Positions 1 to 15,416 of a stretch of DNA of 64,000 nt are shown here, piece by piece. The translations under genes were made by a program, and so were the position numbers. Where the stretch lies: the NCBI GenBank assembly GCA_965116495.1, contig OZ220696.1, positions 3,744,001-3,808,000 of the forward strand. Reading direction: 5' to 3'. How positions within the stretch are numbered: position 1 is the first letter of the stretch; every line of letters starts with the position of its first letter. Origin of the DNA: Gammaproteobacteria bacterium. Its GTDB lineage: Bacteria > Pseudomonadota > Gammaproteobacteria > Eutrophobiales > Eutrophobiaceae. The notes beneath the pieces were generated by a model that was given only the letters and a program-made list of their open reading frames with translations, was not told where the DNA came from and did not search any database.

Positions 1-31
1 TCCGCAGGGACAAGCTTCACAGGAATGCCTG

Positions 32-60
32 CCCCGGCATGTCGTTAGCCGGGGACGAAC
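32..60. repeat. GC-rich palindromic repeat, copy of the 5781-5815 hairpin
   Basis: ccccggcatgtcgttagccggggacgaac is identical in both places. Confidence 0.8.
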
Positions 61-154
61 GAGAGACATCAATTTTGGTTCTGGCTTGGCCAGGTCAGGA
101 TAGATGTACTGATTTTGACCACACTTTGAATCACCCCCGGTTCTTGTATTGCTA

Positions 155-1078
155 TTATATAACTGTGTCGATGACATCTGCCAAATGAATGTTCGGCCGC
201 CATCCCAGTGCGTTCGTTAAAGGTGTGTTATCGCATACCCAGTCCTTGTGGGTAATCTCATTCACCTTACCGGGAGTGAGCATTGCAGGATAACGGAATA
301 CCCGCGCCAGCAGCAGGTTGATATGGGCCATACCTTTCAGTAACATCACGGGGACCCGGATATGGATCAGCGGGCGCTTCCAGGTGTCGCGCCCGATAGC
401 CATGATGTCCGCCCACCGGTAACCCGCGCGGGTGCCGTCATCCAGTTCGAACAGGCCGTGCACTTCCCTTGCCTGCAGCCATTTCAGAATGGCGCTGACC
501 AGGTCATCAATGTGGATAAGGCTTATCCTGGCACCGGGTATCCCCGGCCCCAGCAAAATACCCCGTCGCATCAGCCGGAACATGGGACGCATTTCCTTAT
601 CGCCGGGACCGTATACTGCGGTCGGGCGGTAAATGGTCCGAGATAATCCGCGGTAGCTGTCCGACATCAGCAGTGCCTCGGCCATCGATTTGCTGCGCGC
701 ATACCAGGAGTAGTCCGGGCACCTGGCGGCGATTGATGAAATGAGCAGAAACCTGGCTGTTGGTGAATTTTTCCGGACTGCAGCCAGCAGGTTTTCAGTT
801 CCCCTGAGGTTGACTTCCAGGAAGCCCTCCAGTGAATTGCCCCTGACCGCGCCGGCGCAGTGTATGACGGAAGTACACCCCTCGACCAGTTCAGCCAGTG
901 CGGTTTGATTGTTCAGGTCGCCGTTGATCCAGGTTACCAACCCGGAATCGGGCCTGTCGCGGCGGGTCAATGCCCGGACCGGATATCCTGATTTGTCAAG
1001 TGCGGCGAGAAGGTTTGACCCGAGAAAGCCTGTGGCTCCTGTCAGCGCCACCTGCTCCGTCATGGTCACAGCCCGCAT
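155..1078 (-). CDS. NAD-dependent epimerase/dehydratase (extended SDR); probable ceramide reductase (CerR-like)
   Basis: TGATGFLG Rossmann motif and YxxSK catalytic motif; directly downstream of the acyl-ACP synthetase, as in bacterial ceramide clusters. Start may be 1078, GTG 1069 or ATG 1063. Confidence 0.8.
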   Translation of the reverse strand: MRAVTMTEQVALTGATGFLGSNLLAALDKSGYPVRALTRRDRPDSGLVTWINGDLNNQTALAELVEGCTSVIHCAGAVRGNSLEGFLEVNLRGTENLLAAVRKNSPTARFLLISSIAARCPDYSWYARSKSMAEALLMSDSYRGLSRTIYRPTAVYGPGDKEMRPMFRLMRRGILLGPGIPGARISLIHIDDLVSAILKWLQAREVHGLFELDDGTRAGYRWADIMAIGRDTWKRPLIHIRVPVMLLKGMAHINLLLARVFRYPAMLTPGKVNEITHKDWVCDNTPLTNALGWRPNIHLADVIDTVI

Positions 1079-1231
1079 TTCTTACCAGATAATGCACCCT
1101 CACTTGTCTTTTTGCCGTCAGCGGGCACGTGCTTCCTCAACCGTAGCTACTGCTATGCTTTCGGTCGCAGGCACCCGCTGACAGCAAAAATCCTATGTGA
1201 TCTTTGCATCATCTGGTAAGAAATGCGGGCT
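1070..1231. mobile_element. MITE, family A copy 1
   Basis: Terminal inverted repeats agcccgcatttcttaccagat / atctggtaagaaatgcgggct; internal sequence shared with 10132-10460. Confidence 0.8.
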
Positions 1232-1238
1232 AAACAGA

Positions 1239-2990
1239 TTACGCGGTTTCAGCTTGTGATGTGATGGCCTGAGCCAGGTCTACCCTGTCTGTAAAGCCCT
1301 TGCGTGCGGCAACGCGGGACAACTTGCCTGATGAAGTACGCGGCAAGGTATGCGGCGCGACCAGGTCAACGTAGCAGTAAATTCCAAAACCCTCGTACAC
1401 TTTCCTCTGCAGGTGCTTGATTAACGATTGCCTGGCCGTGGCTTCCGTAAGGCGGCATTCAACCACCAGCACTACGATCTGCCGGCCGTCGTCGGCTTCG
1501 ATATCAAATGCCGAGGATTCGCCCATCCTGATTTCGTCCAGGTCCTCCGCTATCTCTTCCAGGTCCTGGGCGCGGATGTTCCTGCCGTTAACGATGATGA
1601 TGTCTTTGCGCCGTCCCGTCAGGTAGAGGTTTTGCTCGAACAGGTACCCCAGGTCACCGGTATCCAGCCAGCCGTTTTCCAGTATCACCCGGTCGGTTGA
1701 TTCCTGGTCGTTCAGGTAACCGTTCATCAGGCTGGGGCCTTTTACCAGCACCCTGCCGACGCGCAGGTCGGACAATATATCCCCGTCGTTGTCAACAATC
1801 CTGATCTCGTGATCAGGCAGGGCGCGACCGCAATTAACGATTTCATTCACCTTGCGGCTATCGGACTGTACGCGCACGGCAATGCCGCGCTCGGCCATGG
1901 TCAGCGCGTCCACGGACATGACGTCCAGGCCGCGGTCCAGTTCCGAGAACGTCGCGGCAAGCGATGCCTCGGCCAGACCGTAACAGGGCAGGAAAGCATT
2001 GGAGTTAAACCCGGTTTCAGCCATGGTTGCCGCAAACGCCTCGAATGTGCTGGAACGCAGCATCTCTGCGCCGATGCCGGCAATGCGCCAGCAACCCAGG
2101 TCAAGCTGCTGCAGGTCTGCGCTGCGAATTCTACGGGTGCAAAGTTCGTAACCGAACGGCGGCGAGAAGGCGATGGTGCAACGGTTCCTGCTGATCAGGC
2201 GCAGCCATTGCAAGGGCCGAATGGCAAAATCCCGTGTGCGCAGGTAATCCACCGACAACTGGGAGGCGATGGGACCCAGGACGAAACCGACCAGCCCCAT
2301 GTCATGGTAGAACGGCAACCAGGATGCGCAACGATCGCCGTTATGTACTTTCAGCCCGCTTCTTGTTATCCCCTGCAGGTTACTCATTACCGCCTTGCCG
2401 GTAATGATTACCCCCTGCGGGGCGCGGGTGCTGCCGGAAGTAAATTGCAGGTAGGCCGGTTCCTCAGGCCTGCTTGGCTCGAGAGAACGACCTGACGGGG
2501 TAATGTCAGACAGTTGTTCCGGTGTGCCAATCCATTCGAGTTCATCGTTATCCACGGCTGCTTCTTCAAGGAAGCTGATGAACTCTTTGTGGGCGATGGC
2601 CACCTTTGCCTTGCCGCCGGTCAGCAAGCCTTTGAGTTGTTGCACGTAAACTGCATGGCTGCCGAGGTTCAGGGGGATCGGCATGGCGAACGGGACAAGC
2701 CCGATATACTGGCAGGCAAAGAACAGTACGATGAAATCGGGGTGAGTATCGGCGACGAGCGCGATATGATCGCCGCGTTTAAGATTCAGGCTGAGAAGAC
2801 GGCGAGCCGCGAGCCTGGCTTGCTGCTGCAGATCGGGGTAAGGCAGGACGACGCTGAGCCTGCCCCGTGCATCATAAAAATTACACCCGGTAATACCTGC
2901 GGCTGCGTAGTCAAGCGCTTCAGACAGACAGGAGAAGCCGGCTAGATTTTGCGCTAGAGTATTATCAGTGGTCGTCGCTTCTCGATTCAC
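1239..2990 (-). CDS. Fatty acyl-AMP ligase / acyl-ACP synthetase
   Basis: YLQFTSGST, WLPFYHDMGL, YGLAEA, DTGDLG and PRTSSGK adenylation motifs. Confidence 0.9.
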   Translation of the reverse strand: MNREATTTDNTLAQNLAGFSCLSEALDYAAAGITGCNFYDARGRLSVVLPYPDLQQQARLAARRLLSLNLKRGDHIALVADTHPDFIVLFFACQYIGLVPFAMPIPLNLGSHAVYVQQLKGLLTGGKAKVAIAHKEFISFLEEAAVDNDELEWIGTPEQLSDITPSGRSLEPSRPEEPAYLQFTSGSTRAPQGVIITGKAVMSNLQGITRSGLKVHNGDRCASWLPFYHDMGLVGFVLGPIASQLSVDYLRTRDFAIRPLQWLRLISRNRCTIAFSPPFGYELCTRRIRSADLQQLDLGCWRIAGIGAEMLRSSTFEAFAATMAETGFNSNAFLPCYGLAEASLAATFSELDRGLDVMSVDALTMAERGIAVRVQSDSRKVNEIVNCGRALPDHEIRIVDNDGDILSDLRVGRVLVKGPSLMNGYLNDQESTDRVILENGWLDTGDLGYLFEQNLYLTGRRKDIIIVNGRNIRAQDLEEIAEDLDEIRMGESSAFDIEADDGRQIVVLVVECRLTEATARQSLIKHLQRKVYEGFGIYCYVDLVAPHTLPRTSSGKLSRVAARKGFTDRVDLAQAITSQAETA

Positions 2991-3215
2991 GATGAATAAT
3001 CCCCCGTATCGTTCTTTTTAATGCCTGTTGACAACGACAGATTTTTTTTTGGCCTATCACAAGGTCCTTCCGCAAGCATAGGATACCTAACCTGTTATTT
3101 CCAAATGTGAATTATAATCATAAAATACGCCCATTGTATATCTTTACATAGGCCAGGGTGACAAATATTACACAACCTGTAGAAAACTTCCATCTTTTTT
3201 TAACGCATGTGTTAC

Positions 3216-3662
3216 TCAGGCCGGCCACGACGACCTGAGTTCATCCCGCAGTTGATTGAAGACCGTGCTGTCAACCTCGTTATTATGCCCCAGGTCCGGC
3301 GGTCCGGGCCAGCCGGAATCGGTGAATTCCACCTGCGCATAATGACGTATTGCCGCATAACGCGGAATTACGTGAAAATGGACGTGGGGATCAACCATCA
3401 TCAACATCAGGTAGTTCAGTTTATCATACTGAAAAAGGTGCGATAATACCGTGTCGATATCATGTGTAACCCGGGCCAGTTCAGTGAACGCAGCCTGGCT
3501 GAGTTGCGAAAATGCCATTACCGGTTCGCGGGCAACCAGAACCAGGGCGCCCAGTGTTACTTGAGCGGGTCGCAGCAATACCAACCAGGTGGAATACGTA
3601 TGGATAGTCGTTTCAGGCGCCCCGAATTTCAACATGGTATCGTTCAGGGTGTTGAAAGACAT
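3216..3662 (-). CDS. HIT family nucleotide hydrolase
   Basis: HVHFHVIP histidine-triad motif. Confidence 0.88.
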   Translation of the reverse strand: MSFNTLNDTMLKFGAPETTIHTYSTWLVLLRPAQVTLGALVLVAREPVMAFSQLSQAAFTELARVTHDIDTVLSHLFQYDKLNYLMLMMVDPHVHFHVIPRYAAIRHYAQVEFTDSGWPGPPDLGHNNEVDSTVFNQLRDELRSSWPA

Positions 3663-3788
3663 ATCTGGATTCCCCGATTATTATGATAAGGCCTTGTATA
3701 GTAAACGATGATTCACAAGAGATCAAAGTTCTTTTCGGGGATGAAGCAAACCCTCCACAGGTGGAATTAACAGGAGCCGCTGTCGAGA

Positions 3789-4931
3789 ATGAAACGTAAG
3801 CCGATTGACGAAATACGGGTGGTGCCGGTGAGTAACAGGCGTCAGTTGAATGCGTTTATTCGCTTGCCCTGGCGCCTGTATGCGCAGGACTCCCTGTGGG
3901 TGCCGCCATTGAAACTCGAACGCCGGTTGCATTTGTCCTCCCTGAACCCTTATTTTGCCCATGGCCGCTGGCAGGGCTGGGTCGCCTGGCAGGGGGACCG
4001 GCCGGCAGGCCGTATCAGTGCCCAGGTTGATGAATTGCACCGCCGCCGTTACGGCGAGCAATCCGGCCATTTCGGCTTCCTGGAGTGTGAAAACAACCCG
4101 GATGTGATGCGCGCGCTGGTAGCGGAAAGCGAGCGGTGGCTGGCGCAGAACCAGACCGAGGTGGTTACGGGCCCGTTCAATTTTTCCATCAACCAGGAAT
4201 GCGGCCTGCTGGTGGACGGTTTCGATACCCCGCCGGTAATAATGATGCCCCATAACCATCGCTGGTACGCAGACCTGCTTGAACAACAGGGCTATGCCGC
4301 CGCTAAAGACCTGTACGCCTATTGGATCAGGCCCGACTTCACCATACCGCGGGTGATGCAGACCTTGGTGGACAGGTTTGGCAAGTCCGTCAGGCTGAGG
4401 GGGTTGAACCGGAAGAATTTCAAACAGGAACTGGAGACCCTGCGGGATATTTTTAATGATGCCTGGTCCGGTAACTGGGGCTTCGTCCCGTTCACCAGGG
4501 AGGAGTTTGCCGAACTAGGCACCAGTTTACGCCTGTTCGTGCCGGATGACTTTATCCGTATTGCGGAATACCGGGGGAAGGCGGTTGCATTTATCGCCAT
4601 CCTGCCCAACCTGAATGAAGTCCTGCAGGACCTGGACGGCAATTTATTCCCGTCGGGGCTGTTTAAAATTATCCGGGCATTGCGCAAACGCCGCATCAGG
4701 ACGGGCAGGATACCGTTAATGGGGGTGAGGAAAGAATTGCAGAATACCCCGTTGGGAGTTGCCCTGGCGTTACTTGTCATACATGACCTCAGGCAGCCGG
4801 TTATCGACAGGGGAATAGAAGGCGTGGAAATGTCATGGATACTGGAGGACAACCAGGGGATGCGCAGCATCCTGGACAAGATTGGCAGCAGGCTGTACAA
4901 GACTTACCGGATCTACCGGAAGCAGTTATAG
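3789..4931 (+). CDS. bcerS: Bacterial ceramide synthase-like GNAT N-acyltransferase (YghO family)
   Basis: GRISA, GHFGFLE, GPFNFSINQECGLLVDGF, FNDAWSGNWGF and EMSWILEDN motifs; cluster context. Confidence 0.78.
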   Translation: MKRKPIDEIRVVPVSNRRQLNAFIRLPWRLYAQDSLWVPPLKLERRLHLSSLNPYFAHGRWQGWVAWQGDRPAGRISAQVDELHRRRYGEQSGHFGFLECENNPDVMRALVAESERWLAQNQTEVVTGPFNFSINQECGLLVDGFDTPPVIMMPHNHRWYADLLEQQGYAAAKDLYAYWIRPDFTIPRVMQTLVDRFGKSVRLRGLNRKNFKQELETLRDIFNDAWSGNWGFVPFTREEFAELGTSLRLFVPDDFIRIAEYRGKAVAFIAILPNLNEVLQDLDGNLFPSGLFKIIRALRKRRIRTGRIPLMGVRKELQNTPLGVALALLVIHDLRQPVIDRGIEGVEMSWILEDNQGMRSILDKIGSRLYKTYRIYRKQL

Positions 4932-4956
4932 ATAATGATGAACCGTTTGTCCGGAC

Positions 4957-5757
4957 ATGCCCACTGAGCGGAAAATCGTCACCTTGCTGTTGGCCGGGGA
5001 CCGCAGCGGCGTCGATGAGGTTGCCCGCGCTGCCGGCGTCTCCTGCAAGGCACTGGCGCCGCTGGCGGGAATACCGATGATCGTGCGGGTGATCGACGCC
5101 TTGCAGGCGAGCAGGCGGATTAACTCCTTCGTACTGTGCGGTCCGGGTCCGGACGCCGTGAACGCCTGCCCGCCGTTACGGGAATTCATTGATCTCGACA
5201 ATGTCACCCGGGTCCCCGCCGGGAACAGTCTCAGCAACAGTGTGCAGGCCGGTCTGGCAAGGATCGATCCCGCCGCGCTTGTGCTGATCACGACTGCGGA
5301 CCACCCGTTGCTGGACGCCGGCATCCTTGATTATTTCCTGGACAGGGTCATTGACAGCCGCGCCGACGTTAACGTCGGGCTGGTGGAATACGGGTTGATC
5401 GAGACGGCCTGGCCCGGCACGCGGCGCACCGTGCTGAAATTTTCCGACGGCGGCTACTGCGGCTGTAACCTGTATGCACTCTCCGGTGACCGGGCAAGAG
5501 ACATAATTTCACTGTGGCAACGCATACAGACGCAGCGCAAGCAGCCCTGGCGGATGGCCCTCAACCTGTTCGGTATCGGCGCACTGGCAAAGTATGCCTG
5601 CGGCCGCCTGAGCATCCGCCAGACCCAACAGGCCATCCTCAAAACCACCGACATCGCGGTGGACTTCATCAACCTGCCCTTCCCCCAGGCCGGCATCGAC
5701 GTAGATACCCCCGCAGACAAGGAACTGGTGGAACGGATACTTGCCCCCAATCCCTAA
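4957..5757 (+). CDS. MobA-like NTP transferase / nucleotidyltransferase
   Basis: LLAG...KAL, TTADHPLL, DVDT motifs. Confidence 0.8.
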   Translation: MPTERKIVTLLLAGDRSGVDEVARAAGVSCKALAPLAGIPMIVRVIDALQASRRINSFVLCGPGPDAVNACPPLREFIDLDNVTRVPAGNSLSNSVQAGLARIDPAALVLITTADHPLLDAGILDYFLDRVIDSRADVNVGLVEYGLIETAWPGTRRTVLKFSDGGYCGCNLYALSGDRARDIISLWQRIQTQRKQPWRMALNLFGIGALAKYACGRLSIRQTQQAILKTTDIAVDFINLPFPQAGIDVDTPADKELVERILAPNP

Positions 5758-5780
5758 CCTGGCCAAGCCAGAATACCTCC

Positions 5781-5815
5781 GTTCGTCCCCGGCATGTCGT
5801 TAGCCGGGGACGAAC
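5781..5815. repeat. 13-bp-stem hairpin between convergent genes
   Basis: gttcgtccccggc-N9-gccggggacgaac; second copy at 32-60. Confidence 0.75.
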
Positions 5816-5847
5816 AAGGTTCTTGATCATTTTGCGCAACATTTTAC

Positions 5848-6578
5848 TTATAAGGGACTAACAACACTCTCGGCATTCTCCAGGTCTCTTTTAAAATCTA
5901 TCTCACACCAGCGCAGACCTCTGATACCGCAGGCGCGCACCAGTGATTGTTTAGCCAGCTCATCCACAACACTCAGGAACCATAAACGCAGACCGGTTCC
6001 CTGCTTCATCTGCCGGTCGAGGTGATCGCGGAATAGTGCCGGTCCCATTCCCCGGAAATACAGCAGGCCGATGGATTCCGCCATGGTGTGTTCATCCGGT
6101 AACGTTTTACCGATGGCCTTCACCATGGAGTCTTCCAGTTCGACCCGCATATCATCATTATCGTACCTGTCTTTGTAGTCGATGGTTAATGTGACCGGCG
6201 CCGCCGGTGAATTGAGCACAGTGTCCAGTAAAGCCGGTTCAAACAGCGTGTCTCCATTCAATAAAAGAAAATCCCCGTCCATTGCGTGACGGGCCATCCA
6301 GCAACTCGCCAGGTTGTCGGAAACACTGTAGAAGGGATTGAAAACGATGTTAATCCTGTCAGGTCAGCGCCGAAACGGTCGTTGATATGTTCCTCTATGA
6401 GCCCCGAGTTAAACCCGGTGATGATGGAAATCCTGTCGATCTTGGCCGCCAGCAGTGCCGCCACCTGCCACTCCAGTATGGGTTTGCCGGCAACGGCAAG
6501 CATGCACTTGGGGCGCGTCTCGGTCAGGGGCAGCAGTCTTTTCCCCTGGCCTGCGCTCAATATTATCGCGTTAGTCAT
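5848..6578 (-). pseudogene. Phosphocholine cytidylyltransferase (LicC)-like nucleotidyltransferase, frameshifted near 6360
   Basis: ORF 6258-6578 has AIILSAGQGKRL...PKC; ORF 5848-6297 has LLNGD and WCEID; adding one base near 6362 restores RINIVFNPFYSVSDNLASCW. Confidence 0.8.
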
Positions 6579-6662
6579 GACGTTACATTTTTACTGGCCG
6601 GTTAATTCCACACGTGAGGTGAGCAGTTTAATGAAATTTATAATACAATCAAACCGGTAAAC

Positions 6663-6761
6663 CCCGTCATTCCGGCGCAAGCTGGAATCCGGTCAATCAA
6701 TCTTGATTATTTTACAAGGAAGATTCCCTCACTGGATTCCGGCTCGCGCCGGAATGACGGG
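6663..6761. repeat. REP/RPE-like palindromic element (GTCATTCC...GGAATGAC family)
   Basis: cccgtcattccggcgc ... gcgccggaatgacggg with two internal hairpins. Confidence 0.8.
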
Positions 6762-6827
6762 AAGCTTGGACTTGACGGGGGCCTTGGACTTGACAGGGGC
6801 CTTGGATGTAAAAAGTATGCGATTGTT

Positions 6828-7916
6828 TTGAACCGTATGTCACATATTGAACGCTATATCATTCTGGAAGTTCTCAGGCCCTTCAGCTTCGTATTAATCA
6901 TCCTGGTTGCCATGTTCGCCTGTTTCAGCAGCGCAAGATACCTGGCGGAAGCGGTGACGGAGACCCTGGGTGTCTATTTCATGCTCAAGCTGGTTGTACT
7001 GAAGACGCTCATCGCCCTGGAAGTCCTGGTTCCCATTGCCCTCTACACCTCCGTCGTGATTGGCCTTGGCAGGCTGCACCAGGACCGTGAGATAGTGGCC
7101 CTCAGCGCCGCGGGTGTCGGTAACAGTCGCATTATCGGTCCGATCATCGTCATATCCATACCCATTGCCCTGGTGGTGGGCGCGCTGTCCCTTTACGGCC
7201 GTCCCTGGGCCTACCAGAACAGTTATATCCTGGATGCCACGGCCAAGGCCGACCTGAATACGGACCGGTTCCAGGCAGGACGGTTCTACGGCAACGAAGA
7301 TACCGGTACGGTTATCTACATTGCCGAAAAGGATGAGGCGAGCGGCGCGATGTCCAGGATATTTTACTATACCCGCAAGGAGGAGGTCAGTGAGATCACC
7401 GCGGCGGTGAGCGCCGGTCAGGACAGGGGCGCGGAGGACGAGAGGCTGCGGGTGTCACTCCATGACGGCTTGCAGTACAGGTTGCAGCAGGGTTCAAGGG
7501 AGGATGAAGTCATCCGCTTTGAAAAGCTGGTCAGGTATCACGAGGATCCCGAGTTGAGTATCGGTTATAAACGCAAGGCCGAGGCGACGCTCACGCTGCT
7601 CAAGTCCGACAGGCCGGAAGATATCGCCGAACTCCAGTGGCGCTTGTCCCGTCCCGTTGCCACGTTGCTGCTCGCGCTGATCGCCATACCCCTGAGTCGC
7701 TCGTCGCCCAGGCAGGGGAAAAATGAGAGGGTATTCACGGCTGCATTGATATTTGCGGTGTATTACAACCTGAACGGCGTCGCCCAGTCCTGGGTGGAGC
7801 AGGGCGTGATGGACGAGATACCTGGTGTCTGGTGGTTGCACACGCTCATGGCGCTGGTCGTGTTCATGTTCCTGTATGAAAGATTTAACCGGCGTTATTT
7901 GCAAGGATTCCGTTAG
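6828..7916 (+). CDS. lptF: LptF-family permease (paralogue inside the sphingolipid cluster)
   Basis: ERYI N-terminus, RLHQDREIVAL, AELQWRLS motif; 3+3 TM layout. Confidence 0.88.
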   Translation: MNRMSHIERYIILEVLRPFSFVLIILVAMFACFSSARYLAEAVTETLGVYFMLKLVVLKTLIALEVLVPIALYTSVVIGLGRLHQDREIVALSAAGVGNSRIIGPIIVISIPIALVVGALSLYGRPWAYQNSYILDATAKADLNTDRFQAGRFYGNEDTGTVIYIAEKDEASGAMSRIFYYTRKEEVSEITAAVSAGQDRGAEDERLRVSLHDGLQYRLQQGSREDEVIRFEKLVRYHEDPELSIGYKRKAEATLTLLKSDRPEDIAELQWRLSRPVATLLLALIAIPLSRSSPRQGKNERVFTAALIFAVYYNLNGVAQSWVEQGVMDEIPGVWWLHTLMALVVFMFLYERFNRRYLQGFR

Positions 7917-7924
7917 CGCGGACA

Positions 7925-8995
7925 GTGCCAGTGAGTATTTCTGAAAAATACCTGATGCAGCAGATCAGCGTGGGGTTGTTGATCGCGGCCGCGGTCCTGC
8001 TGCCGCTGTTCTGCTTCTTTGACCTGATTGAACAGATGGAGGATATCGGTGAAGGTTTTTACCGCGCGCAGGATGCGTTTTACATCGTCCTGTTGCTGTC
8101 GCCCAGGAGGTTGATTCAACTGCTCCCGTTTATTGCGCTGATCGGCAACGTGATTGCGCTCGGGAGGCTGGCGCTGAATTCGGAAATTATCGCCATGCGC
8201 GCGGCCGGGCTGTCACCGACGAGAATCAGCCTGGCATCCTTCAAGGTGGGCCTGTGCCTGTTGCTGTTGCTGGGGGTACTGGAGCAGTATGCCGCGCCGT
8301 ATATGCAGAACAAAGCCATCGCCCATCGTCTGGACGCCTTGAACCAGAGTGCGGAACTGGGTGCCGACCTGGGCATCTGGACACGGGATGAAAACCGGAT
8401 TTTGCGGCTTGGTGAGGCTATCCGCGCGGCCTACGTGGAGGACGTGGAGATTTTCACCCTGGATGAACAGGGTTTGCTCAGCAGCTACATCCATGCGCAG
8501 GACGCCGAGATAATCAGTAACGAAAAGTGGAGGTTGTACGACGTCACCATGAAAGAATTTACCGACACCCGGGTAAATACGACGTCTTCAGCGCGCATGA
8601 ACTGGCGCCCTTTTCTGAGTTCCGAGCAGGTTGACAAACTGACCAGACAGGCTGGAAGCCTGTCGCCGACGGATCTATACCGCCATATCCTTTACCTGAA
8701 GAAGACGGGCCAGCAACATGATGAGCTCTCACTGGCCTTCTGGCGGAAATTCGGCACCGGTCTGATCATGCTGGCCATGCTGCTGTTGTCGGTACCGTTT
8801 GTATTCGGATCGATTCGGACGGGCATCGGCTCGCGCCTGGTACTTGCCGGTATCACGGGGATCTGCGTGTACTTGCTGGACCAGATTTTATCCAACGCCG
8901 GATTATTGCTGAACATGAACCACGCACTGGTGGCGTTGTCACCCGGAATTGCGCTGATGCTGATAGGCCGCCTGTGGCTGGAGCGGGTGGCGTGA
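7925..8995 (+). CDS. lptG: LptG-family permease
   Basis: LALNSEIIAMRAAGLS and LAFWRK motifs; follows lptF. Confidence 0.88.
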   Translation: MPVSISEKYLMQQISVGLLIAAAVLLPLFCFFDLIEQMEDIGEGFYRAQDAFYIVLLLSPRRLIQLLPFIALIGNVIALGRLALNSEIIAMRAAGLSPTRISLASFKVGLCLLLLLGVLEQYAAPYMQNKAIAHRLDALNQSAELGADLGIWTRDENRILRLGEAIRAAYVEDVEIFTLDEQGLLSSYIHAQDAEIISNEKWRLYDVTMKEFTDTRVNTTSSARMNWRPFLSSEQVDKLTRQAGSLSPTDLYRHILYLKKTGQQHDELSLAFWRKFGTGLIMLAMLLLSVPFVFGSIRTGIGSRLVLAGITGICVYLLDQILSNAGLLLNMNHALVALSPGIALMLIGRLWLERVA

Positions 8996-9000
8996 AAGGC

Positions 9001-9174
9001 AATTAGGAATTACGAATTAGGAACAGGTGGACTACGTCTCTACGTGCCTCGGTTCGGCGTGCGAAAAACCTGAGGAGCATTGAAAAACCGTCGCCACAGG
9101 TGGCACATTCATTCCTAATTCCTAATTCGTAATTCGTAATTCCTAATTCCTAATTCGTAATTCCTAATTCGTAA
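9001..9174. repeat. Inverted heptamer arrays (AATTAGG/AATTACG and complement)
   Basis: 3 units at 9001-9023 and about 9 complementary units at 9112-9174. Confidence 0.85.
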
Positions 9175-10066
9175 CTATCCTCTCCCGATCCGGCTCGAAA
9201 TTCTGCGTTTCCCCGTTAAGGATAAATGACCTGATTGAGGTCAGCCAACCGTTCGAGGTCCTGGTTACCTGGTAAATATTGTAGCCTGCCCTTTTATCCG
9301 GGTTTTTGTAACTGGCGGAAGCGGACGGCACGCCGAACACCGGGATTGAGTGGGCGCCGGCCTCGAGTACTGCATGCAACTGGCGGTGCCCGTGACCGTG
9401 AACAATCAGTTCCGCGCCCGGTCCTGACAGGTTCGCCAGCAGCGCGTCCGCATCGGTTAGTCCGCGTCTGAAGCTTGATGATTGTGGACCGTGATGCAGT
9501 ACAACGATGCGGTATAAACCCCGTTGCGCGGTCGTTTCCAGCAGGTGGCTGAGGCGTCGCAACTGTTCATTGCCCAGTTTGCCGCTGGCGAGAAAGGGCG
9601 CCGTGGGTATTGCCGTTGACAGGCCGATGAGCGCCACCGGACCGCGCACCCGCAGGTAGGGAAAGGCGGCGGTGTTGTCGCGTTCACCCGGATCACCCTG
9701 CATATAGGCCCGCCAGCGTCCGGTCGTTTGGGCAAAATCGGTGGCCACGTACTGATCATGATTCCCCGGTATGATTGATACATCACGGGGCTGGCCGGCG
9801 CTGTTTAACCAGGCTTCGGTTTCCCGGCATTCATTTTCCGTGCCCAGGTGGGTAAAGTCGCCGCTGATGACCAGGTGGTCGGCCTGGTGCCGCGCCAGGT
9901 CTGCAAGAGTAAGGGACAGGACTTCCCTGCTGTGCGAGTCACGGCGCTTCAGTTTCCATGAAAGATACCCGAGAATTCGCTTGTTCAGCAAGTCCCACCA
10001 TTTGATGTGGTCCAGCGACGTCAGGTGGGGATCGGAAATGTGGGCAATCTTCAGGCTTGGATTCAC
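9164..10066 (-). CDS. Calcineurin-like metallophosphoesterase
   Basis: HISDPH, SGDFT, PGNHD, LHH and HGHGH motifs. Confidence 0.9.
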   Translation of the reverse strand: MNPSLKIAHISDPHLTSLDHIKWWDLLNKRILGYLSWKLKRRDSHSREVLSLTLADLARHQADHLVISGDFTHLGTENECRETEAWLNSAGQPRDVSIIPGNHDQYVATDFAQTTGRWRAYMQGDPGERDNTAAFPYLRVRGPVALIGLSTAIPTAPFLASGKLGNEQLRRLSHLLETTAQRGLYRIVVLHHGPQSSSFRRGLTDADALLANLSGPGAELIVHGHGHRQLHAVLEAGAHSIPVFGVPSASASYKNPDKRAGYNIYQVTRTSNGWLTSIRSFILNGETQNFEPDRERIVTN

Positions 10067-10131
10067 GTTGACGGGTTAAGAGTGTATTATCCGGGTAAAT
10101 ATTAGCACAGCACCCGGATTACAAGTTATAA

Positions 10132-10460
10132 AGCCCGCATTTCTCACCAGTCCGCTTGTTGTCACCGGATAGTTGTTTGCTGTCAATACGTTATGATAAC
10201 CTGCTCACAATGTCATCATTACAGACTGCGCTTGATGCGCCTTCGCTTGTCTTTTTGCCGCCAGCGGGCACGTGTTCATTGCGCCCATCCTTGGGCGCAT
10301 CAACTACGGCTATGCTTTCGGTCGCAGGCACCCGCTGGCGGCACAAATCTGCCAGGAGCAGATTTGGACGTCCGCAGGATGCCCGAAGGGTGTGCGCCAA
10401 GGAAGGCGCACATCTAAAATCCTGCGCGATCATCACATCAACTGGTGAGAAATGCGGGCT
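10132..10460. mobile_element. MITE, family A copy 2 (longer, with nested palindromic inserts)
   Basis: TIRs agcccgcatttctcaccagt / actggtgagaaatgcgggct; shares cttgtctttttgccg...ctatgctttcggtcgcaggcacccgctg with copy 1. Confidence 0.8.
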
Positions 10461-11627
10461 ATGAATGCGCATGTTCAAATCATCGGCGACAGCCGGACAA
10501 AGATATGGGGGATGACCGGCCGTGAAAGGCTGGTCCGTATGCTGGACAGGAGCGCCGGCGTGGAAATCACTGCTCCGGGGGAGAGATTGCCGTCCGGCGC
10601 GCCGGTCATTTTTCTCAGAGGAGATTACCTGTTCGATGCCCGGGTATTGCAGGCTGTTACGGGTCTGGACGGCGAGTTTGTCCTGTACAGGCAGGATGGC
10701 CGGACTGCCGTTGCCATCCGCACAAACGACCCTGACGAAAACATATTCAATCGTGACCATTACCCGGAAGCATTAGAAAGAATTAGGCTGGATGACCTGG
10801 TCAATCCGTACAACGAGCGGTTGAAAAAATATGAACAGGCCAAGGTCTGGCAGATTAAGCCTGACAACCGGGATTTTCTTGAGCAGGAGCTGTTCAGTGG
10901 TTCCTACAAAGGCGTAACCGACCTGGTGACCAAATGGGTCTGGCCCCTGCCCGCAAGGTGGGCGACAAAAATGTGTGCCAGGCTTGGTTTGAAACCGAAC
11001 CACGTGACCATATTCAGCCTGGTGCTGGCAATCCTGGCCGGCATTGCCTTCTGGTATGGGGAATACGCCGGCGGCCTGTTGCTGGGCTGGTTAATGACCT
11101 TCCTGGATACCGTGGACGGCAAGCTGGCCAGGGTGACGCTGACCTCGAGCCGTTTCGGTGACCTGCTGGACCATGGCCTGGACCTGGTACATCCGCCGCT
11201 CTGGTATGTTGCCTGGGGGGTGGGATTGGCCGCGCAGACGCCGTTGCCGGGGTCGTTGGCAATGCTGTTGTGGCTGATGTTCGGCGCGTATGTCTGTGGC
11301 CGTCTGTGTGAAGGAGTGTTTCAGCATTACATTGCCGATTTCTCTATCTTCATGTGGCGGCCTGTTGATTCACTGAGCCGCCTGATTACTGCCCGGCGTA
11401 ATCCGAATATGCTGATATTGACGGCCGCGGTGATGGCCGGGCGGCCCGACACCGGGCTGGTGCTCATCATCGCCTGGCACCTGCTGTCCACCCTGTTCCT
11501 GATCATCAGGCTCGCTGTTGCCTGGCAGGCGAGCCGGAACCAGGGGCCGCTGGAGAGTTGGCTGGAACGGGTCGGACCGGAAACCCGGCACAACAGGGTG
11601 GCTGTGAAGATGTTCAGGAAGCTCTGA
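10461..11627 (+). CDS. CDP-alcohol phosphatidyltransferase (CpgA-like)
   Basis: DTVDGKLAR...GDLLDHGLD signature, YKGVTDLVTKWVWP and ITARRNPN motifs; alternative start 10452 lies inside the MITE. Confidence 0.85.
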   Translation: MNAHVQIIGDSRTKIWGMTGRERLVRMLDRSAGVEITAPGERLPSGAPVIFLRGDYLFDARVLQAVTGLDGEFVLYRQDGRTAVAIRTNDPDENIFNRDHYPEALERIRLDDLVNPYNERLKKYEQAKVWQIKPDNRDFLEQELFSGSYKGVTDLVTKWVWPLPARWATKMCARLGLKPNHVTIFSLVLAILAGIAFWYGEYAGGLLLGWLMTFLDTVDGKLARVTLTSSRFGDLLDHGLDLVHPPLWYVAWGVGLAAQTPLPGSLAMLLWLMFGAYVCGRLCEGVFQHYIADFSIFMWRPVDSLSRLITARRNPNMLILTAAVMAGRPDTGLVLIIAWHLLSTLFLIIRLAVAWQASRNQGPLESWLERVGPETRHNRVAVKMFRKL

Positions 11628-11639
11628 TTAAGTCCGTCC

Positions 11640-11837
11640 GGGACTTGTCAGAACACGCACAAATCGGCGGGATAGCCGATTTGCACAACTTGTTGCCGCC
11701 TTGCGGCGAGCTACCAGGATGTAGCGAGTGAAAACAAAAATGCGATTTTTGTTTTGCTCCCAAAATCAATGACCTACAGTCATTGATTTTGACGGCACAT
11801 CCCTGTACTGTAGGAACCTCTGACTTAAGAGGTTCCT
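11640..11837. repeat. Multi-hairpin MITE-like element plus a collapsed inverted repeat
   Basis: Hairpins aaatcggc/gccgattt, aaaacaaaaat/atttttgtttt, caaaatcaatgac/gtcattgattttg, then aggaacctc/gaggttcct. Confidence 0.65.
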
Positions 11838-11841
11838 GTAC

Positions 11842-12804
11842 ATGAGACGGTTTTCAGGCCCCGACGTCCCGCCGGCATTAACGGACGCCGTCGCACGCCA
11901 ATGTGCCGGGACCGTGCCGGATTCCTGTGCTGCCATCACCGACGCAATCAGGGAATCCTACGGTGCGGCGCTTGTGGGTGTCCTGTTGTATGGATCCTGC
12001 TCACGGGATGAGGCCGTGGAGGATGGCATCGTTGATATCTATGCCATTGTCGATGACTATCAATCTGTTTATGAAAAACGTTACCTGGCAACCCTGAATG
12101 ACTGGTTGCCGCCTAACGTGTTTTACCGGGAAATATCCAGCAACCACGGTTTGATCAGGATAAAACTGGCGCTGATCAGCCTGGCGGATTTCCGCGGCGG
12201 TATCCTGGACTGGTTCCATTCCTACCTGTGGGGGCGTTTTGCCCAGCCGGCGCGCATACTGTACGTGCGGGATGAAACGCTGCGCAACGAACTTCATGGA
12301 CTCATGGCGCAGGCCGTGCTGACCCTGCTCAGGGCATCGATTCCAGCCCTGGGGGAAAAGTCCGGGGATGCAGAGGCAATCTGGACCCGGGCCCTGGCGT
12401 TATCCTATTCCGCGGAATACCGGCCGGAACCCGGCACCAAGGCCGGCCAGCTGGTCAGGTCCGATCCGGCCGCTTACAGCGGGTTGCTGGAGGCCGCCTT
12501 GCCCGCGCTCGGCGCCAAGCTGCGCCGGCAGGGTGAAGATGATTACCTGTGCCTGGGCGATCGCGGTGACAGCAAGGCGGCATTGCGCCGCTGGCGCCTG
12601 CGCCGCTGGCAGGGGCGCGTGCTGTCCGTACTGAGGTTGATGAAGGCGACCCTGACCTTTCAAAACGGTGTGGATTATGCCGCCTGGAAGATAAACCGGC
12701 ATACCGGGGTCAGTATAGAAGTCACCCCGCAACTGCGCCGCCATCCCCTGTTGTTCGGCTGGCAGGTCTTCCGGCAACTGGTCAAACGGGGCATTATACA
12801 TTAA
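11842..12804 (+). CDS. Pol-beta-fold nucleotidyltransferase-like protein (CpgC/Tam41-like)
   Basis: LLYGSC...DGIVDIYAIVDDY, LPPNVFY, WGRFAQP and DYAAWKINRH motifs; cluster context. Confidence 0.7.
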   Translation: MRRFSGPDVPPALTDAVARQCAGTVPDSCAAITDAIRESYGAALVGVLLYGSCSRDEAVEDGIVDIYAIVDDYQSVYEKRYLATLNDWLPPNVFYREISSNHGLIRIKLALISLADFRGGILDWFHSYLWGRFAQPARILYVRDETLRNELHGLMAQAVLTLLRASIPALGEKSGDAEAIWTRALALSYSAEYRPEPGTKAGQLVRSDPAAYSGLLEAALPALGAKLRRQGEDDYLCLGDRGDSKAALRRWRLRRWQGRVLSVLRLMKATLTFQNGVDYAAWKINRHTGVSIEVTPQLRRHPLLFGWQVFRQLVKRGIIH

Positions 12805-12806
12805 CC

Positions 12807-13538
12807 ATGGAGACGGTGAAGAAAAAGCACCGGCCCAGCGTGGCGCTGGGATTGTGGATCATCAAGCGGGTGGAGCAGTTTCTGATCAGGCATTCCCTGG
12901 TCGGCGACACGCCTTTCCTGCCGTCCGCGGCCTTTGCCTGGGTGGAGACGCTGGAAGCCAACTGGCAGGTGATTCGCGCGGAGCTGGACCAGGTGTTGAA
13001 GACCCCGGAACGCATCCCGAATTTTCAGGATATATCGCCCGACCAGGCCAACATTACCCGGGATGACAAGTGGAAGTCGTATTTTCTTTACGGATACGGC
13101 TACAAAATGACCGACAACTGTGATCAGTGTCCCGAAACGACGCGTATTATCGAATCAATACCCGGTATGTTCACGGCTTTTTTTTCCGTCCTGGCGCCGG
13201 GCAAGCACATACCCAGGCATCGCGGACCTTACCGCGGCCTGCTGCGCTGTCACCTGGCGCTGGTCGTACCCCGGCCGCGGGAAGCGTGCTGGATAGAAGT
13301 GGGTGAGGAGACAACCACCTGGGAAGAGGGGCGCTGTATTGTTTTTGATGATACCTATAAACACCGGGTGGAGAACAACACCGACGGGGTCCGGGTGGTG
13401 CTGTTTCTCGACGTATTGCGCCCGTTAAGATTTCCCTGTTCACTCATCAACCGGATCATGCTGCAACTGATCCGGCTCTCGCCGTTCATCCAGGATGCCC
13501 GCCGCAACCAGGTGGCCTGGGAGAAGCGCCTGGGTTAA
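12807..13538 (+). CDS. Aspartyl/asparaginyl beta-hydroxylase (AspH/LpxO family) dioxygenase
   Basis: LEANWQVIRAEL, CPET, HRGPY, FDDTYKH and RVVLFLD motifs. Confidence 0.88.
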   Translation: METVKKKHRPSVALGLWIIKRVEQFLIRHSLVGDTPFLPSAAFAWVETLEANWQVIRAELDQVLKTPERIPNFQDISPDQANITRDDKWKSYFLYGYGYKMTDNCDQCPETTRIIESIPGMFTAFFSVLAPGKHIPRHRGPYRGLLRCHLALVVPRPREACWIEVGEETTTWEEGRCIVFDDTYKHRVENNTDGVRVVLFLDVLRPLRFPCSLINRIMLQLIRLSPFIQDARRNQVAWEKRLG

Positions 13539-13545
13539 AGGAGAC

Positions 13546-13606
13546 GTAAATTTGGGACACCCATAAATTAACGAAAATTGTAAATTTATGGGTGTCCCAA
13601 ATTTAC
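13546..13606. terminator. Perfect 24-bp-stem hairpin between convergent genes (bidirectional terminator or REP)
   Basis: gtaaatttgggacacccataaatt / aatttatgggtgtcccaaatttac; overlaps the cofD stop. Confidence 0.65.
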
Positions 13607-14550
13607 TGTTGGCTCAGCGCGAATTCAAGACAGGTTCCGGCCAGGGAAATCCGGTCTTGTATGGAGCGCATGATGGTGTTGGTGACCTTGACCCTGATTC
13701 CGAGTTTCTCTATGGCCCGGGTTTCCTGCTCATCAGCAGTGTCGATGACCAATCCGTCCAGGAAGTCAGCATAATAGTCTGCGATTGACAGGTTGCTTGC
13801 CGGCATACCAAGCTCTTTCATGATCTTGGCCGCGGGGCCTTTCAACGCCTTTCCGCCGATGATGGGTGAGACGGCGACGACGGGTGCTTTGACGGATTGC
13901 AGGCCGGTACGGATGCCCTCCAGGGACAGGATCGGGCCGATGCTGAGGAAGGGATTCGACGGGCACAGGATGATTGCGTCCGGTTCACGGCCGCTGAGCA
14001 GGGCGGCAAAGTCCGGGTGTGGACGGGCTTGGCCGGCGCCGCTGAACTCGACGGCCCTGACCCCGGGCCGGCAGCCCAGGCGCACGAAATAATCTTGGAA
14101 CGACAGGGTTCCCCGGTCGGTGACGATGAGCGTCTGCAACGGGTCGTCGGTCATAGGGATGATCCGGTGTGCCATGCCGAAACTCCGGCACAGTGCGCGG
14201 GTGACCCCGGCCAGCCCCAGGCCCTGTTTCAGTGCCCGGGTCCGGTACAGGTGGGTGGCAAGGTCTTTGTCGCCCAGTTTGAACCAGGCCGCTTCCTCAA
14301 AACCGGCAAGTGCCTCCATGAATGACCAGGTTTCGCCGGCGAGGCCCCAGCCCCGGTCCGGGTCCGCCACCCCGGCCAGCGTGTACATGACCGTGTCCAG
14401 GTCGGGTGAGATATGCAGCCCCAGGTGTTCAAAGTCGTCACCGGTATTGACCACGATGAGAAGGTCGTCCGGGCTGACGACCTTGCTGAGTCCATGGGCC
14501 AGTTTCGCACCGCCCACGCCGCCGCACAGGGACAGGATGGTTTTATTCAT
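13603..14550 (-). CDS. cofD: 2-phospho-L-lactate transferase (F420 synthesis)
   Basis: GGVGGAKL, VNTGDD, SPDLDTVMY, WFKLGDKD, PSNPFLSI and VSPIIGG..KGPA motifs. Confidence 0.95.
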   Translation of the reverse strand: MNKTILSLCGGVGGAKLAHGLSKVVSPDDLLIVVNTGDDFEHLGLHISPDLDTVMYTLAGVADPDRGWGLAGETWSFMEALAGFEEAAWFKLGDKDLATHLYRTRALKQGLGLAGVTRALCRSFGMAHRIIPMTDDPLQTLIVTDRGTLSFQDYFVRLGCRPGVRAVEFSGAGQARPHPDFAALLSGREPDAIILCPSNPFLSIGPILSLEGIRTGLQSVKAPVVAVSPIIGGKALKGPAAKIMKELGMPASNLSIADYYADFLDGLVIDTADEQETRAIEKLGIRVKVTNTIMRSIQDRISLAGTCLEFALSQQ

Positions 14551-14587
14551 TGGAGAATTATTACATATAGGTGCCGGTATGACGCAC

Positions 14588-14635
14588 TGGGTTCCGGCTT
14601 TCGCCGGGACGACGGGGCCTTCGCCGGGACGATGG
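14588..14635. repeat. Half REP-like element with tandem duplication
   Basis: ctgggttccggctttcgccgggacgacg...; near-identical copy at 23170-23215. Confidence 0.65.
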
Positions 14636-14639
14636 TAAT

Positions 14640-15416
14640 TTATCTGAACAGGTCCTTGTCGGGGTCTCTTATCAGGGCGGATGCGTCACTGGCCGGGCCG
14701 CGCAGGTCCAGGCCGTGCACCAGTACCGCAGGTATCCCCTCGGCGCCCTGTCCCATAACCAGTGAGGCGGCGGCGGCAATCTCGTCCGCGATACCCACCT
14801 CGGTCACGCGCAACGGGGTTCCGTACAGGTCAGCCTCACCGCGCAGGTCCAGCAGGCAGGGCAGGCCGGCGCCGCCGATGGCGATGCCGGTCACGCCGTT
14901 GCGCCAGGCGCGCCCGGCGCTGTCGTTGATGATGATGCCGATGTTTACCTCCCGGGTCCGCCTGAATTCAGCGTGTATCTGCGCGGCGCTGGCATCGGGG
15001 TCCTCCGGCAGCAACAGGACTGTTTCCGAACCCGCGTGCTGCGGGATATTGGAATGGTCGATGCCAGCGTTGGCGTGGACGTAGCCCAGCTTGTGCTCAA
15101 CGATCAGGACATCCTGCCGGTACCTGACCACCCGTTTCGACTGGGCCAGTATCAGCTCGACCAGGCGCGGGTCCTTGTCCGTTTTCCCGGCCAGTTCCAC
15201 GGCCCGTTTCGAGGCTGTTATCCCGGCCAGGTCCACGTAGCGGTTCTCGGCCTTGGACACAACCTTCTGGGCGATGACCAGGATATCGCCTTCGGCAAGA
15301 GGCTGGGACTGCAGTTGCTCCAGCAGCAATTGCGCGAGGTCGGCGCCAGGCATGACTTCCGGCATGCCGTGGACGGGCAGCAGTCGTACTCCCTTGTTGG
15401 ATTTGTCGGTGTTCAT
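14640..15416 (-). CDS. cofE: Coenzyme F420-0:L-glutamate ligase (single-domain)
   Basis: AQKVVSKAE, ANAGIDHSN, LLPEDPDASA, DSAGRAWR and ADEIAAAA motifs. Confidence 0.95.
   Translation of the reverse strand: MNTDKSNKGVRLLPVHGMPEVMPGADLAQLLLEQLQSQPLAEGDILVIAQKVVSKAENRYVDLAGITASKRAVELAGKTDKDPRLVELILAQSKRVVRYRQDVLIVEHKLGYVHANAGIDHSNIPQHAGSETVLLLPEDPDASAAQIHAEFRRTREVNIGIIINDSAGRAWRNGVTGIAIGGAGLPCLLDLRGEADLYGTPLRVTEVGIADEIAAAASLVMGQGAEGIPAVLVHGLDLRGPASDASALIRDPDKDLFR

Follow-up and report, generated by a model that had tools for sequence, protein, structure and literature searches.

The window analyzed here, i.e., the whole stretch of 64,000 nucleotides at positions 3,744,001 to 3,808,000 of contig OZ220696.1 (assembly GCA_965116495.1; C1:3744001-3808000 of genome G000), originates from a gammaproteobacterium of the family Eutrophobiaceae, whose genome was obtained as a single contig of 4.34 Mb (99.5% complete). 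It begins within a sphingolipid locus of the Caulobacter type that retains cpgC under purifying selection, while cpgB, the gene for the ceramide kinase, is missing from this genome and from all genomes of the genus sampled. Replacement of CpgB by the diacylglycerol kinase DgkA is slightly favored as an explanation. The locus also encodes a second pair of lipopolysaccharide (LPS) permease-type proteins, LptF2 and LptG2, which is likely a dedicated sphingolipid exporter and was probably recruited independently of the corresponding Caulobacter pair. Judged from its gene content, the organism would make anionic sphingolipids.

Composition of the Sphingolipid Locus

The system used for comparison is the locus CC_1152-CC_1168 (CCNA_01210-01226) of Caulobacter crescentus, for which 17 genes are described, among them those for Spt, AcpR, AasR, CerR, bCerS, CpgA-D, and LptF2/G2/C2 (PMC9393093, PMC11324152, PMC12275187, PMC10331486, 10.64898/2026.04.12.717747). 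Protein sequences were taken from the locus of Caulobacter vibrioides DSM 9893, and CC numbers were derived from the order of the genes together with the descriptions given in S1 Text of PMC11324152. The locus studied here comprises the following features (window positions, or contig coordinates where marked C1; percentages are identities to Caulobacter):

C1:3740703-3742025, minus strand: Wzx-type flippase, counterpart of CC_1166 (PF01943; 31%)
C1:3742196-3743377, minus strand: spt (PF00155; 54%)
C1:3743544-3743795, minus strand: acp, encoding the acyl carrier protein (ACP) AcpR (PF00550; 39%)
1..154, minus strand: spacer after cerR, from which the cluster runs on leftward on the same strand
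155..1078, minus strand: counterpart of the ceramide reductase CerR (CC_1164), of the short-chain dehydrogenase/epimerase type (36%)
1239..2990, minus strand: counterpart of the acyl-ACP synthetase AasR (CC_1165), a fatty acyl-AMP ligase (FAAL) (PRK09192, 796 bits, above the cut-off; 43%)
3216..3662, minus strand: HIT protein, counterpart of CC_1157 (46%)
3789..4931, plus strand: counterpart of the ceramide synthase bCerS (CC_1154), 380 amino acids (41% over 377 amino acids)
4957..5757, plus strand: MobA-like nucleoside triphosphate transferase, counterpart of CC_1153 (33%)
5848..6578, minus strand: counterpart of the cytidine triphosphate (CTP):phosphoglycerate cytidylyltransferase CpgD (CC_1152; 46-51%, two halves)
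6828..7916, plus strand: LptF2, a second LptF of the gammaproteobacterial type (above the NCBIfam cut-off)
7925..8995, plus strand: LptG2, a second LptG of the gammaproteobacterial type (above the NCBIfam cut-off)
9164..10066, minus strand: metallophosphoesterase, counterpart of CC_1158 (42%)
10452..11627, plus strand: counterpart of the cytidine diphosphate (CDP)-alcohol phosphotransferase CpgA (CC_1159; 39-40%)
11628..11841, no strand: 210-bp dispersed repeat at the cpgB site of sister genera (24 genome matches)
11842..12804, plus strand: counterpart of CpgC (CC_1161), with a Tam41 CDP-lipid-synthase fold (30%)
12807..13538, plus strand: lipid hydroxylase of the Asp/Arg beta-hydroxylase family, OlsC/LpxO-like (PF05118)

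A preliminary description of this DNA, made from the letters alone, had listed genes in the window, each of which was recovered at its position, and had likened the set to the Caulobacter ceramide locus. This likeness was confirmed, since the best whole-genome matches of 12 Caulobacter locus proteins lie inside the cluster (30-54% identity). The description had further expected acp, spt, and a ceramide kinase on the minus strand just to the left of base 1; acp and spt are indeed there, whereas no ceramide kinase was found there or elsewhere in the genome.

Loss of the Ceramide Kinase Gene cpgB

The profile PF00781, which detects Caulobacter CpgB, gave zero matches in the genome, and CpgB profiles built from 4, 5, and 23 sequences, run unfiltered on 42,799 six-frame segments, returned none below E 0.3. 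Within a sample of 126 genomes of the family, cpgC was found in 51, namely in each of the 23 members of this genus and in 28 further genomes. A 14-row CpgB profile matched at full length in 27 of these 28 (E < 1e-76) and in none of the 23. Weak partial YegS-like kinase matches (E ~1e-5) were located outside the locus in four genus genomes, and one family genome devoid of cpgC showed a partial match to the CpgB profile. All 22 genomes carrying cpgC in a 400-genome sample of the phylum possess cpgB as well (directly adjoining cpgC in 21, elsewhere in one); outside the genus, cpgB accompanies cpgC in 49 out of 50 genomes. Genome G042 (62% complete), with cpgC and only a weak kinase match, was left out of these counts. 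No cpgB-less lineage carrying cpgC was reported in the literature searched, which included few subscription journals.

The sister genome G028 features an identical gene order with cpgB placed between cpgA and cpgC, indicating a clean deletion in the genus studied. The gap between cpgA and cpgC and the one preceding cpgA were considered as sites of a kinase remnant and rejected, as both are dispersed repeats and no remnant was recovered by tblastn at E 0.05 in any of the 24 genus loci. A kinase-less cluster of rearranged order was also found in G515, a genome of another genus (97% complete; G515:C8:190000-210000), which probably represents a second cpgB loss. In this locus, an ABC transporter replaces the Wzx flippase after spt.

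It is extremely improbable that the kinase is absent merely from the assemblies. Several genus genomes are fragmented; however, G000 and eight further genus genomes consist of one contig each, the spacing between cpgA and cpgC measures only about 3 bases in many relatives, and the two genes are directly joined on a contig of a different public run, so that this explanation is largely refuted.

Retention of cpgC and the Head-Group Genes

Ratios of nonsynonymous to synonymous substitution rates (dN/dS) were determined by simple Nei-Gojobori counts for nine within-genus pairs, which are not independent of each other. Values ranged between 0.19 and 0.43 for cpgC (nine pairs), 0.19 and 0.33 for cpgA (eight pairs), and 0.10 and 0.30 for the phosphoesterase gene, compared to 0.02-0.11 for spt and aasR. 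Hence, cpgC is under purifying selection. Three CpgB-bearing pairs were mostly saturated, the one measurable pair giving about 0.2 for cpgA and the phosphoesterase gene, so that the rates of cpgC in the presence and absence of the kinase cannot be compared fairly.

Tam41 enzymes act on a lipid phosphate. The AlphaFold2 model of CpgC (predicted local distance difference test value, pLDDT, of 87) yielded the Tam41 structure 7ecd as its top fold match (E 7.9e-9), and the Tam41 CDP-diacylglycerol synthases 7ecd and 6ig4 share its fold with template modeling (TM) scores of 0.52-0.59 at 17% identity. In addition, a Caulobacter cpgC mutant was described to keep ceramide phosphate and to lose ceramide phosphoglycerate (CPG) (PMC9393093). 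Fold and mutant phenotype together suggest a likely requirement of CpgC for a phosphorylated lipid.

Enzymes of the CDP-alcohol phosphotransferase family pass a phospho-alcohol on to a free lipid hydroxyl. This family chemistry speaks for a kinase-free route, in which CpgA would attach phosphoglycerate from CDP-glycerate directly to the hydroxyl group of ceramide; alternatively, another phosphate donor would be used by CpgC and the phosphoesterase. In line with it, most of the genus retains cpgA and cpgD. The phosphoesterase gene occurs in G515 and in each of the 17 genus regions but is missing from the CpgB-bearing loci of G473, G217, and G234, and S2 Table of PMC11324152 also lists such loci without it. 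However, selection on cpgC would be left unexplained by this route. Moreover, the loci of genomes G006 and G011 no longer contain cpgA, cpgD, and the genes for the MobA-like and HIT proteins, and a genome-wide search did not reveal cpgA in either of them. Since cpgC is nevertheless retained, along with the genes for the flippase, LptFG, and the phosphoesterase, a bypass by CpgA alone is disfavored in these two genomes. According to PMC11324152, Caulobacter CpgA is also dispensable for CPG and cannot stand in for CpgB. We therefore consider a kinase-free route unlikely, and the same low probability is given to the combined proposal that the genus makes phosphoglycerate sphingolipids without any ceramide kinase and exports them via an independently recruited LptFG pair.

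The losses in G006 and G011 also bear on the proposal that only neutral (hydroxy)ceramide is made and exported, with the head-group genes serving glycerolipids (CpgC acting as a CDP-diacylglycerol synthase on phosphatidic acid) or slowly decaying. The fold of CpgC is that of CDP-diacylglycerol synthases, spt and aasR evolve more slowly than the head-group genes (dN/dS about 0.1-0.4 for the latter), some head-group genes are gone in these two genomes, and the locus of E. coli DSM 30083 combines lptFG and a flippase with zero cpg genes. Opposed to this, the frames are intact with dN/dS far below 1 genus-wide, the measurable CpgB-bearing pair reached similar values, and the joint loss of cpgA, cpgD, the MobA-like gene, and the HIT gene tracks the Caulobacter module for CPG2, the product bearing two phosphoglycerates. 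Such a neutral product thus appears rather improbable. The co-loss matches the CPG2 module defined by genetics in PMC11324152, suggesting that the HIT gene belongs to it. The same module is lost from the locus of G473, which has retained cpgB, and a distant cpgA is located elsewhere in three other genus genomes.

DgkA as Candidate Ceramide Kinase and the Proposed Pathway

An intact dgkA gene was identified at C1:3011467; its product exceeds the PF01219 cut-off and aligns without gaps to E. coli DgkA. The latter enzyme has been used in vitro to convert ceramide to ceramide-1-phosphate (PMC2196395), and literature searches for bacterial DgkA acting on ceramide returned this in vitro use only. 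DgkA was detected in 22 of the 24 genomes that have cpgC but no kinase, and the completeness of the remaining two is 77% and 83%. By contrast, none was found in the Caulobacter genome, which would explain the absence of ceramide phosphate in its cpgB mutant. On these grounds, the balance tips slightly toward DgkA having replaced CpgB as the ceramide kinase.

Several points weigh against this reading. The loss of cpgB across the genus is one event, so the genus genomes do not count independently. Furthermore, dgkA is a housekeeping gene located far from the cluster and occurs in 97 of the 126 family genomes. Among the 27 CpgB-bearing relatives, it is intact in 18, broken in two, and not found in seven; DgkA is thus permissive rather than diagnostic. 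Of the 22 distant cpgC genomes, one encodes DgkA, which may mostly reflect their alphaproteobacterial background. According to PMC12275187, the mechanism of CpgC is not identified for Caulobacter either. Finally, whole-genome orthology was searched one way only, from Caulobacter to G000, and the forward search covered the 20-kb Caulobacter locus, Spt alone being compared with the whole genome; the matches are therefore not full reciprocal best hits. A clean anticorrelation between CpgB and DgkA, which had been strong in small samples, was abandoned after it weakened in the full family.

An unrecognized kinase of another fold, encoded elsewhere, could also make ceramide-1-phosphate, given that the searches covered the DAGK_cat, DAGK_prokar, and CpgB profiles only and that gene relocation is known in the genus from the distant cpgA copies. 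The genus loci do not feature any extra conserved gene compared to CpgB-bearing loci, however, and a competent candidate is already there in DgkA, making an additional enzyme of this kind rather doubtful.

The pathway that we narrowly prefer would therefore rely on DgkA in place of CpgB to make ceramide carrying one or two phosphoglycerates, with LptF2/G2 as exporter. For the steps known in Caulobacter and assigned here by orthology, AasR would load AcpR, Spt would condense acyl-AcpR with serine, and bCerS and CerR would yield dihydroceramide; CpgD would make CDP-glycerate, and CpgA and the MobA-like protein, with a contribution of the phosphoesterase, would attach the second phosphoglycerate. 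The remaining steps are proposed for the present organism only: DgkA would phosphorylate ceramide, CpgC would activate ceramide phosphate with CTP en route to CPG, the OlsC/LpxO-like enzyme may hydroxylate an acyl chain, the Wzx protein may flip the lipid, and LptF2/G2 would borrow the single LptB of the genome. The sphingolipid would reside beside LPS, as in Caulobacter, since lpxC and the housekeeping lptFG are retained.

Probable Origin of the Putative LptF2/LptG2 Exporter

The presence of a second, housekeeping lptFG pair, for which the preliminary description had suggested looking, was confirmed outside the cluster, in the pepA-valS context typical of this pair. Assignment of the organism to the gammaproteobacteria is based on this context, on a close homologue (61%) named 'Gammaproteobacteria bacterium', and on the trees described below. 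Because lpxC and one LptB (above the cut-off) are encoded elsewhere in the genome as well, LPS is likely made too. In terms of gene content, the dedicated Lpt paralogue proposed previously thus holds, with a locus pair, a housekeeping pair, and one LptB. Its orthology to the Caulobacter pair was not borne out. LptF and LptG of the locus share only 25% identity with Caulobacter LptF2/G2, the best match of Caulobacter LptG2 in this genome is the housekeeping LptG, and LptF2 found no match at E 0.01.

A tree of 35 rows, with LptF and LptG each serving as the root of the other, grouped the gammaproteobacterial locus copies with the gammaproteobacterial housekeeping copies (99/99 in both halves). 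The split between alpha- and gammaproteobacterial sequences persisted when 27 and subsequently 30 rows were used for each gene, with support of 100/99 and 100/100 for LptG and of 99/95 and 99/97 for LptF. Locus copies from the family, two Nitrosomonas-like genomes, E. coli, and a Pseudomonas plasmid formed one clade on the gammaproteobacterial side (99/100, 100/100). A single clade uniting alpha- and gammaproteobacterial sphingolipid copies was rejected by the approximately unbiased test (p-AU 0.0013 for LptG with 27 rows; 0.004 and 0.036 for LptF with 15 and 27 rows, respectively). The single-gene trees exclude four long rows of G053 and a lone extra Caulobacter LptF, and the only pair of G093, located outside its cpgC locus, was counted as sphingolipid-type since it grouped so.

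The grouping of the locus pair with gammaproteobacterial housekeeping LptFG suggests an independently recruited exporter. Long branches meet in these trees and only two alphaproteobacterial housekeeping rows are included; the test for LptF is of marginal significance with 27 rows, and the first tree had already been seen when the hypothesis was formulated. With these reservations, we consider it probable that the gammaproteobacterial LptF2/G2 were recruited independently of the Caulobacter pair, likely by a duplication of gammaproteobacterial lptFG. As judged from sequence, the pair is likely a dedicated sphingolipid exporter. Caulobacter LptF2/G2 were reported to bind LptB and to be deletable only in strains without spt or cpgB; the same preprint notes LptF2/G2 in alpha- and gammaproteobacteria, its main text being without a phylogeny (10.64898/2026.04.12.717747). 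Within the same literature coverage as given for cpgB, no LptF2/G2 tree or account of the origin of the gammaproteobacterial pair was found.

Caulobacter vibrioides DSM 9893 encodes a fifth, lone LptF-type gene, which groups with LptF2 (G061:C22:42997-44049). In G217, G234, G073, and G411 (100% complete), the sole lptFG pair lies in the sphingolipid locus (G217:C1:2176934-2179047 and G234:C28:24697-26804 for the first two), and no LpxC match was obtained. G217 and G234 are Nitrosomonas-like, their CpgC being 65-70% identical to named Nitrosomonas proteins. These two may be LPS-less like Sphingomonas, given their single locus lptFG and the missing LpxC match; one literature search did not bring up a report of this.

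Comparison with Known Sphingolipid Loci

The set for de novo ceramide synthesis is complete, as orthologues of Spt, AcpR, AasR, CerR, and bCerS were all identified. Absence of a serine palmitoyltransferase, which would have contradicted the preliminary description, does not apply, since the best PDB match of Spt is such an enzyme (2x8u, E 2.8e-130). CerR was matched in the genome with E 6e-34, the next paralogue reaching 1.5e-6. The 380-amino-acid protein, previously taken for a GNAT, has no Pfam or NCBIfam match; its identity with Caulobacter bCerS amounts to 41%, and that with E. coli YghO to 48%. The CPG2 module is represented by the counterparts of CpgA, CpgD, CC_1153, and CC_1158; CC_1153 is needed for CPG2 in Caulobacter. 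With Caulobacter queries, no counterpart of CpgB, LptC2, or CC_1167 was found in the genome at E 0.01.

Of the 17 Caulobacter genes, 12 have best-match counterparts, and both organisms combine lptF/lptG in the locus with a second lptFG, lpxC, and one lptB elsewhere. Differences from Caulobacter are the lack of CpgB, LptC2, and CC_1167, the added hydroxylase, the gammaproteobacterial type of LptF2/G2, and the presence of DgkA. The cluster works like the Caulobacter CPG/CPG2 system but departs from it in two features, namely CpgB and orthologous LptF2/G2.

The hydroxylase gene, overlooked previously, starts three bases after the cpgC stop and closes the cpgC operon. Its product meets PF05118 and stays below the cut-offs for OlsC (263 versus 450 bits) and LpxO (141 versus 500 bits). 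It has no match in the 20-kb Caulobacter locus region and is 66% identical to its counterpart in the cluster of a Pseudomonas plasmid. This plasmid, pPNP1 of Pseudomonas sp. JS425 (NZ_CP073662.1, ~65700-84300), bears a largely complete sphingolipid cluster with spt, acp, cerR, aasR, lptFG, a kinase gene, cpgC, cpgA, a cpgD-like gene, and the hydroxylase gene; IS5 occupies the usual place of bCerS, and a class 1 integron adjoins the cluster. Roseomonas plasmids bear an alphaproteobacterial-type cluster.

The preliminary description was right that a phosphosphingolipid cluster with its own LptFG is present in a gammaproteobacterium, and overstated the case, as such clusters are already in print (PMC11324152; 10.64898/2026.04.12.717747). 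Contiguous gamma- and betaproteobacterial clusters with lptF2/G2 are described for Azotobacter vinelandii, Pseudomonas luteola, and Nitrosomonas eutropha in Fig 7 and S2 Table of PMC11324152. Like the present locus, they contain the ceramide genes, cpgA, cpgC, cpgD, CC_1153, and lptF2/G2, and their lptF2/G2 also match Caulobacter LptF2/G2 weakly (24-33%, E 1e-6 to 6e-15). In contrast to the present locus, cpgB is present and CC_1158 and CC_1166 are reported absent there, the reverse being true here.

The E. coli locus (DSM 30083; UTI89 in 10.64898/2026.04.12.717747) consists of yghO, FAAL, epimerase, acp, spt, lptFG, and flippase genes. In DSM 30083, the ceramide genes are 40-53% identical to those studied here and LptF/G fall in the same gammaproteobacterial-type clade; cpgA, B, C, and D are absent from the locus, and the FAAL gene is annotated as a pseudogene. 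At the DNA level, spt was matched in 364 out of 5426 complete E. coli genomes.

Frame Split in cpgD

The cpgD gene is broken into two frames near position 6359 in the assembly, a split absent from the preliminary description. At position 6359, an additional base is present at full depth in contigs of three out of four public runs, while the fourth has no bridging contig; the three runs belong to one study, possibly including the source sample. The same extra base was found in a relative of about 94-96% identity from a run labelled sponge metagenome, and cpgD is a single long frame in all 14 same-genus regions holding it. The split is thus an assembly error, and a true pseudogene was ruled out by the same evidence. 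The protein possesses the equivalents of R16, K26, and the NGD aspartate of Caulobacter CpgD, which is defined as CTP:phosphoglycerate cytidylyltransferase (PMC12275187). A structure search retrieved no close solved relative, the best match being LicC (E 5e-12).

Gene Order, Repeats, and Neighborhood

The backbone order is identical in all 16 full-length same-genus regions (17 were fetched, the last stopping at a contig edge), with some head-group genes absent from five of the regions. This recurrence indicates that the clustering is not due to chance; the cluster is a vertically conserved, 16-gene Caulobacter-type sphingolipid locus. In G010, the gene for a 949-amino-acid protein, whose repeats are serralysin-like and RTX-like, is inserted between cpgD and the MobA-like gene (L059 6792-9638), and in G013 a TnpB-like transposon gene separates lptF from cpgD (L066 6025-7242), both as read from sequence.

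Intergenic gaps consist of dispersed repeats with 12-47 genome matches each (five gaps tested). Palindromic repeats of several families, resembling miniature inverted-repeat transposable elements, were seen at window positions 1070-1231, 6663-6761, 9001-9169, 10132-10461, 11628-11841, and 13546-13606, several of which are missing from contigs of a related strain. The relative from the sponge-labelled run has the same gene order over window positions 3000-12000, and a second such run yielded scattered short pieces of the cluster; the two runs hint at a sponge-associated group.

Beyond spt and the flippase gene, the left flank holds an xdhC-like and unrelated genes. The cluster is followed by cofD and cofE of F420 synthesis (13603-15416, minus strand), and cofD-like frames adjoin it in many relatives. 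A strong compositional anomaly at 50001-54000 (GC content 0.66, GC skew 0.43) is probably due to a repetitive gene.

Implications

The cluster type has been published before, and the cluster itself adds little. A genus with a selected cpgC and no cpgB, however, offers a direct handle on the step from ceramide to CPG, and lineages of this kind would be overlooked if cpgB served as the genomic marker of anionic sphingolipids. Should the kinase-free route prove true, the genus would be a natural experiment exposing the chemistry of CpgC. An independent origin of the gammaproteobacterial LptF2/G2, if true, would qualify the suggestion, made in PMC11324152, that whole gammaproteobacterial clusters came from an alphaproteobacterium. 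LPS permeases would then have been turned to sphingolipid export twice, and comparing the two pairs would point to the residues determining lipid specificity.

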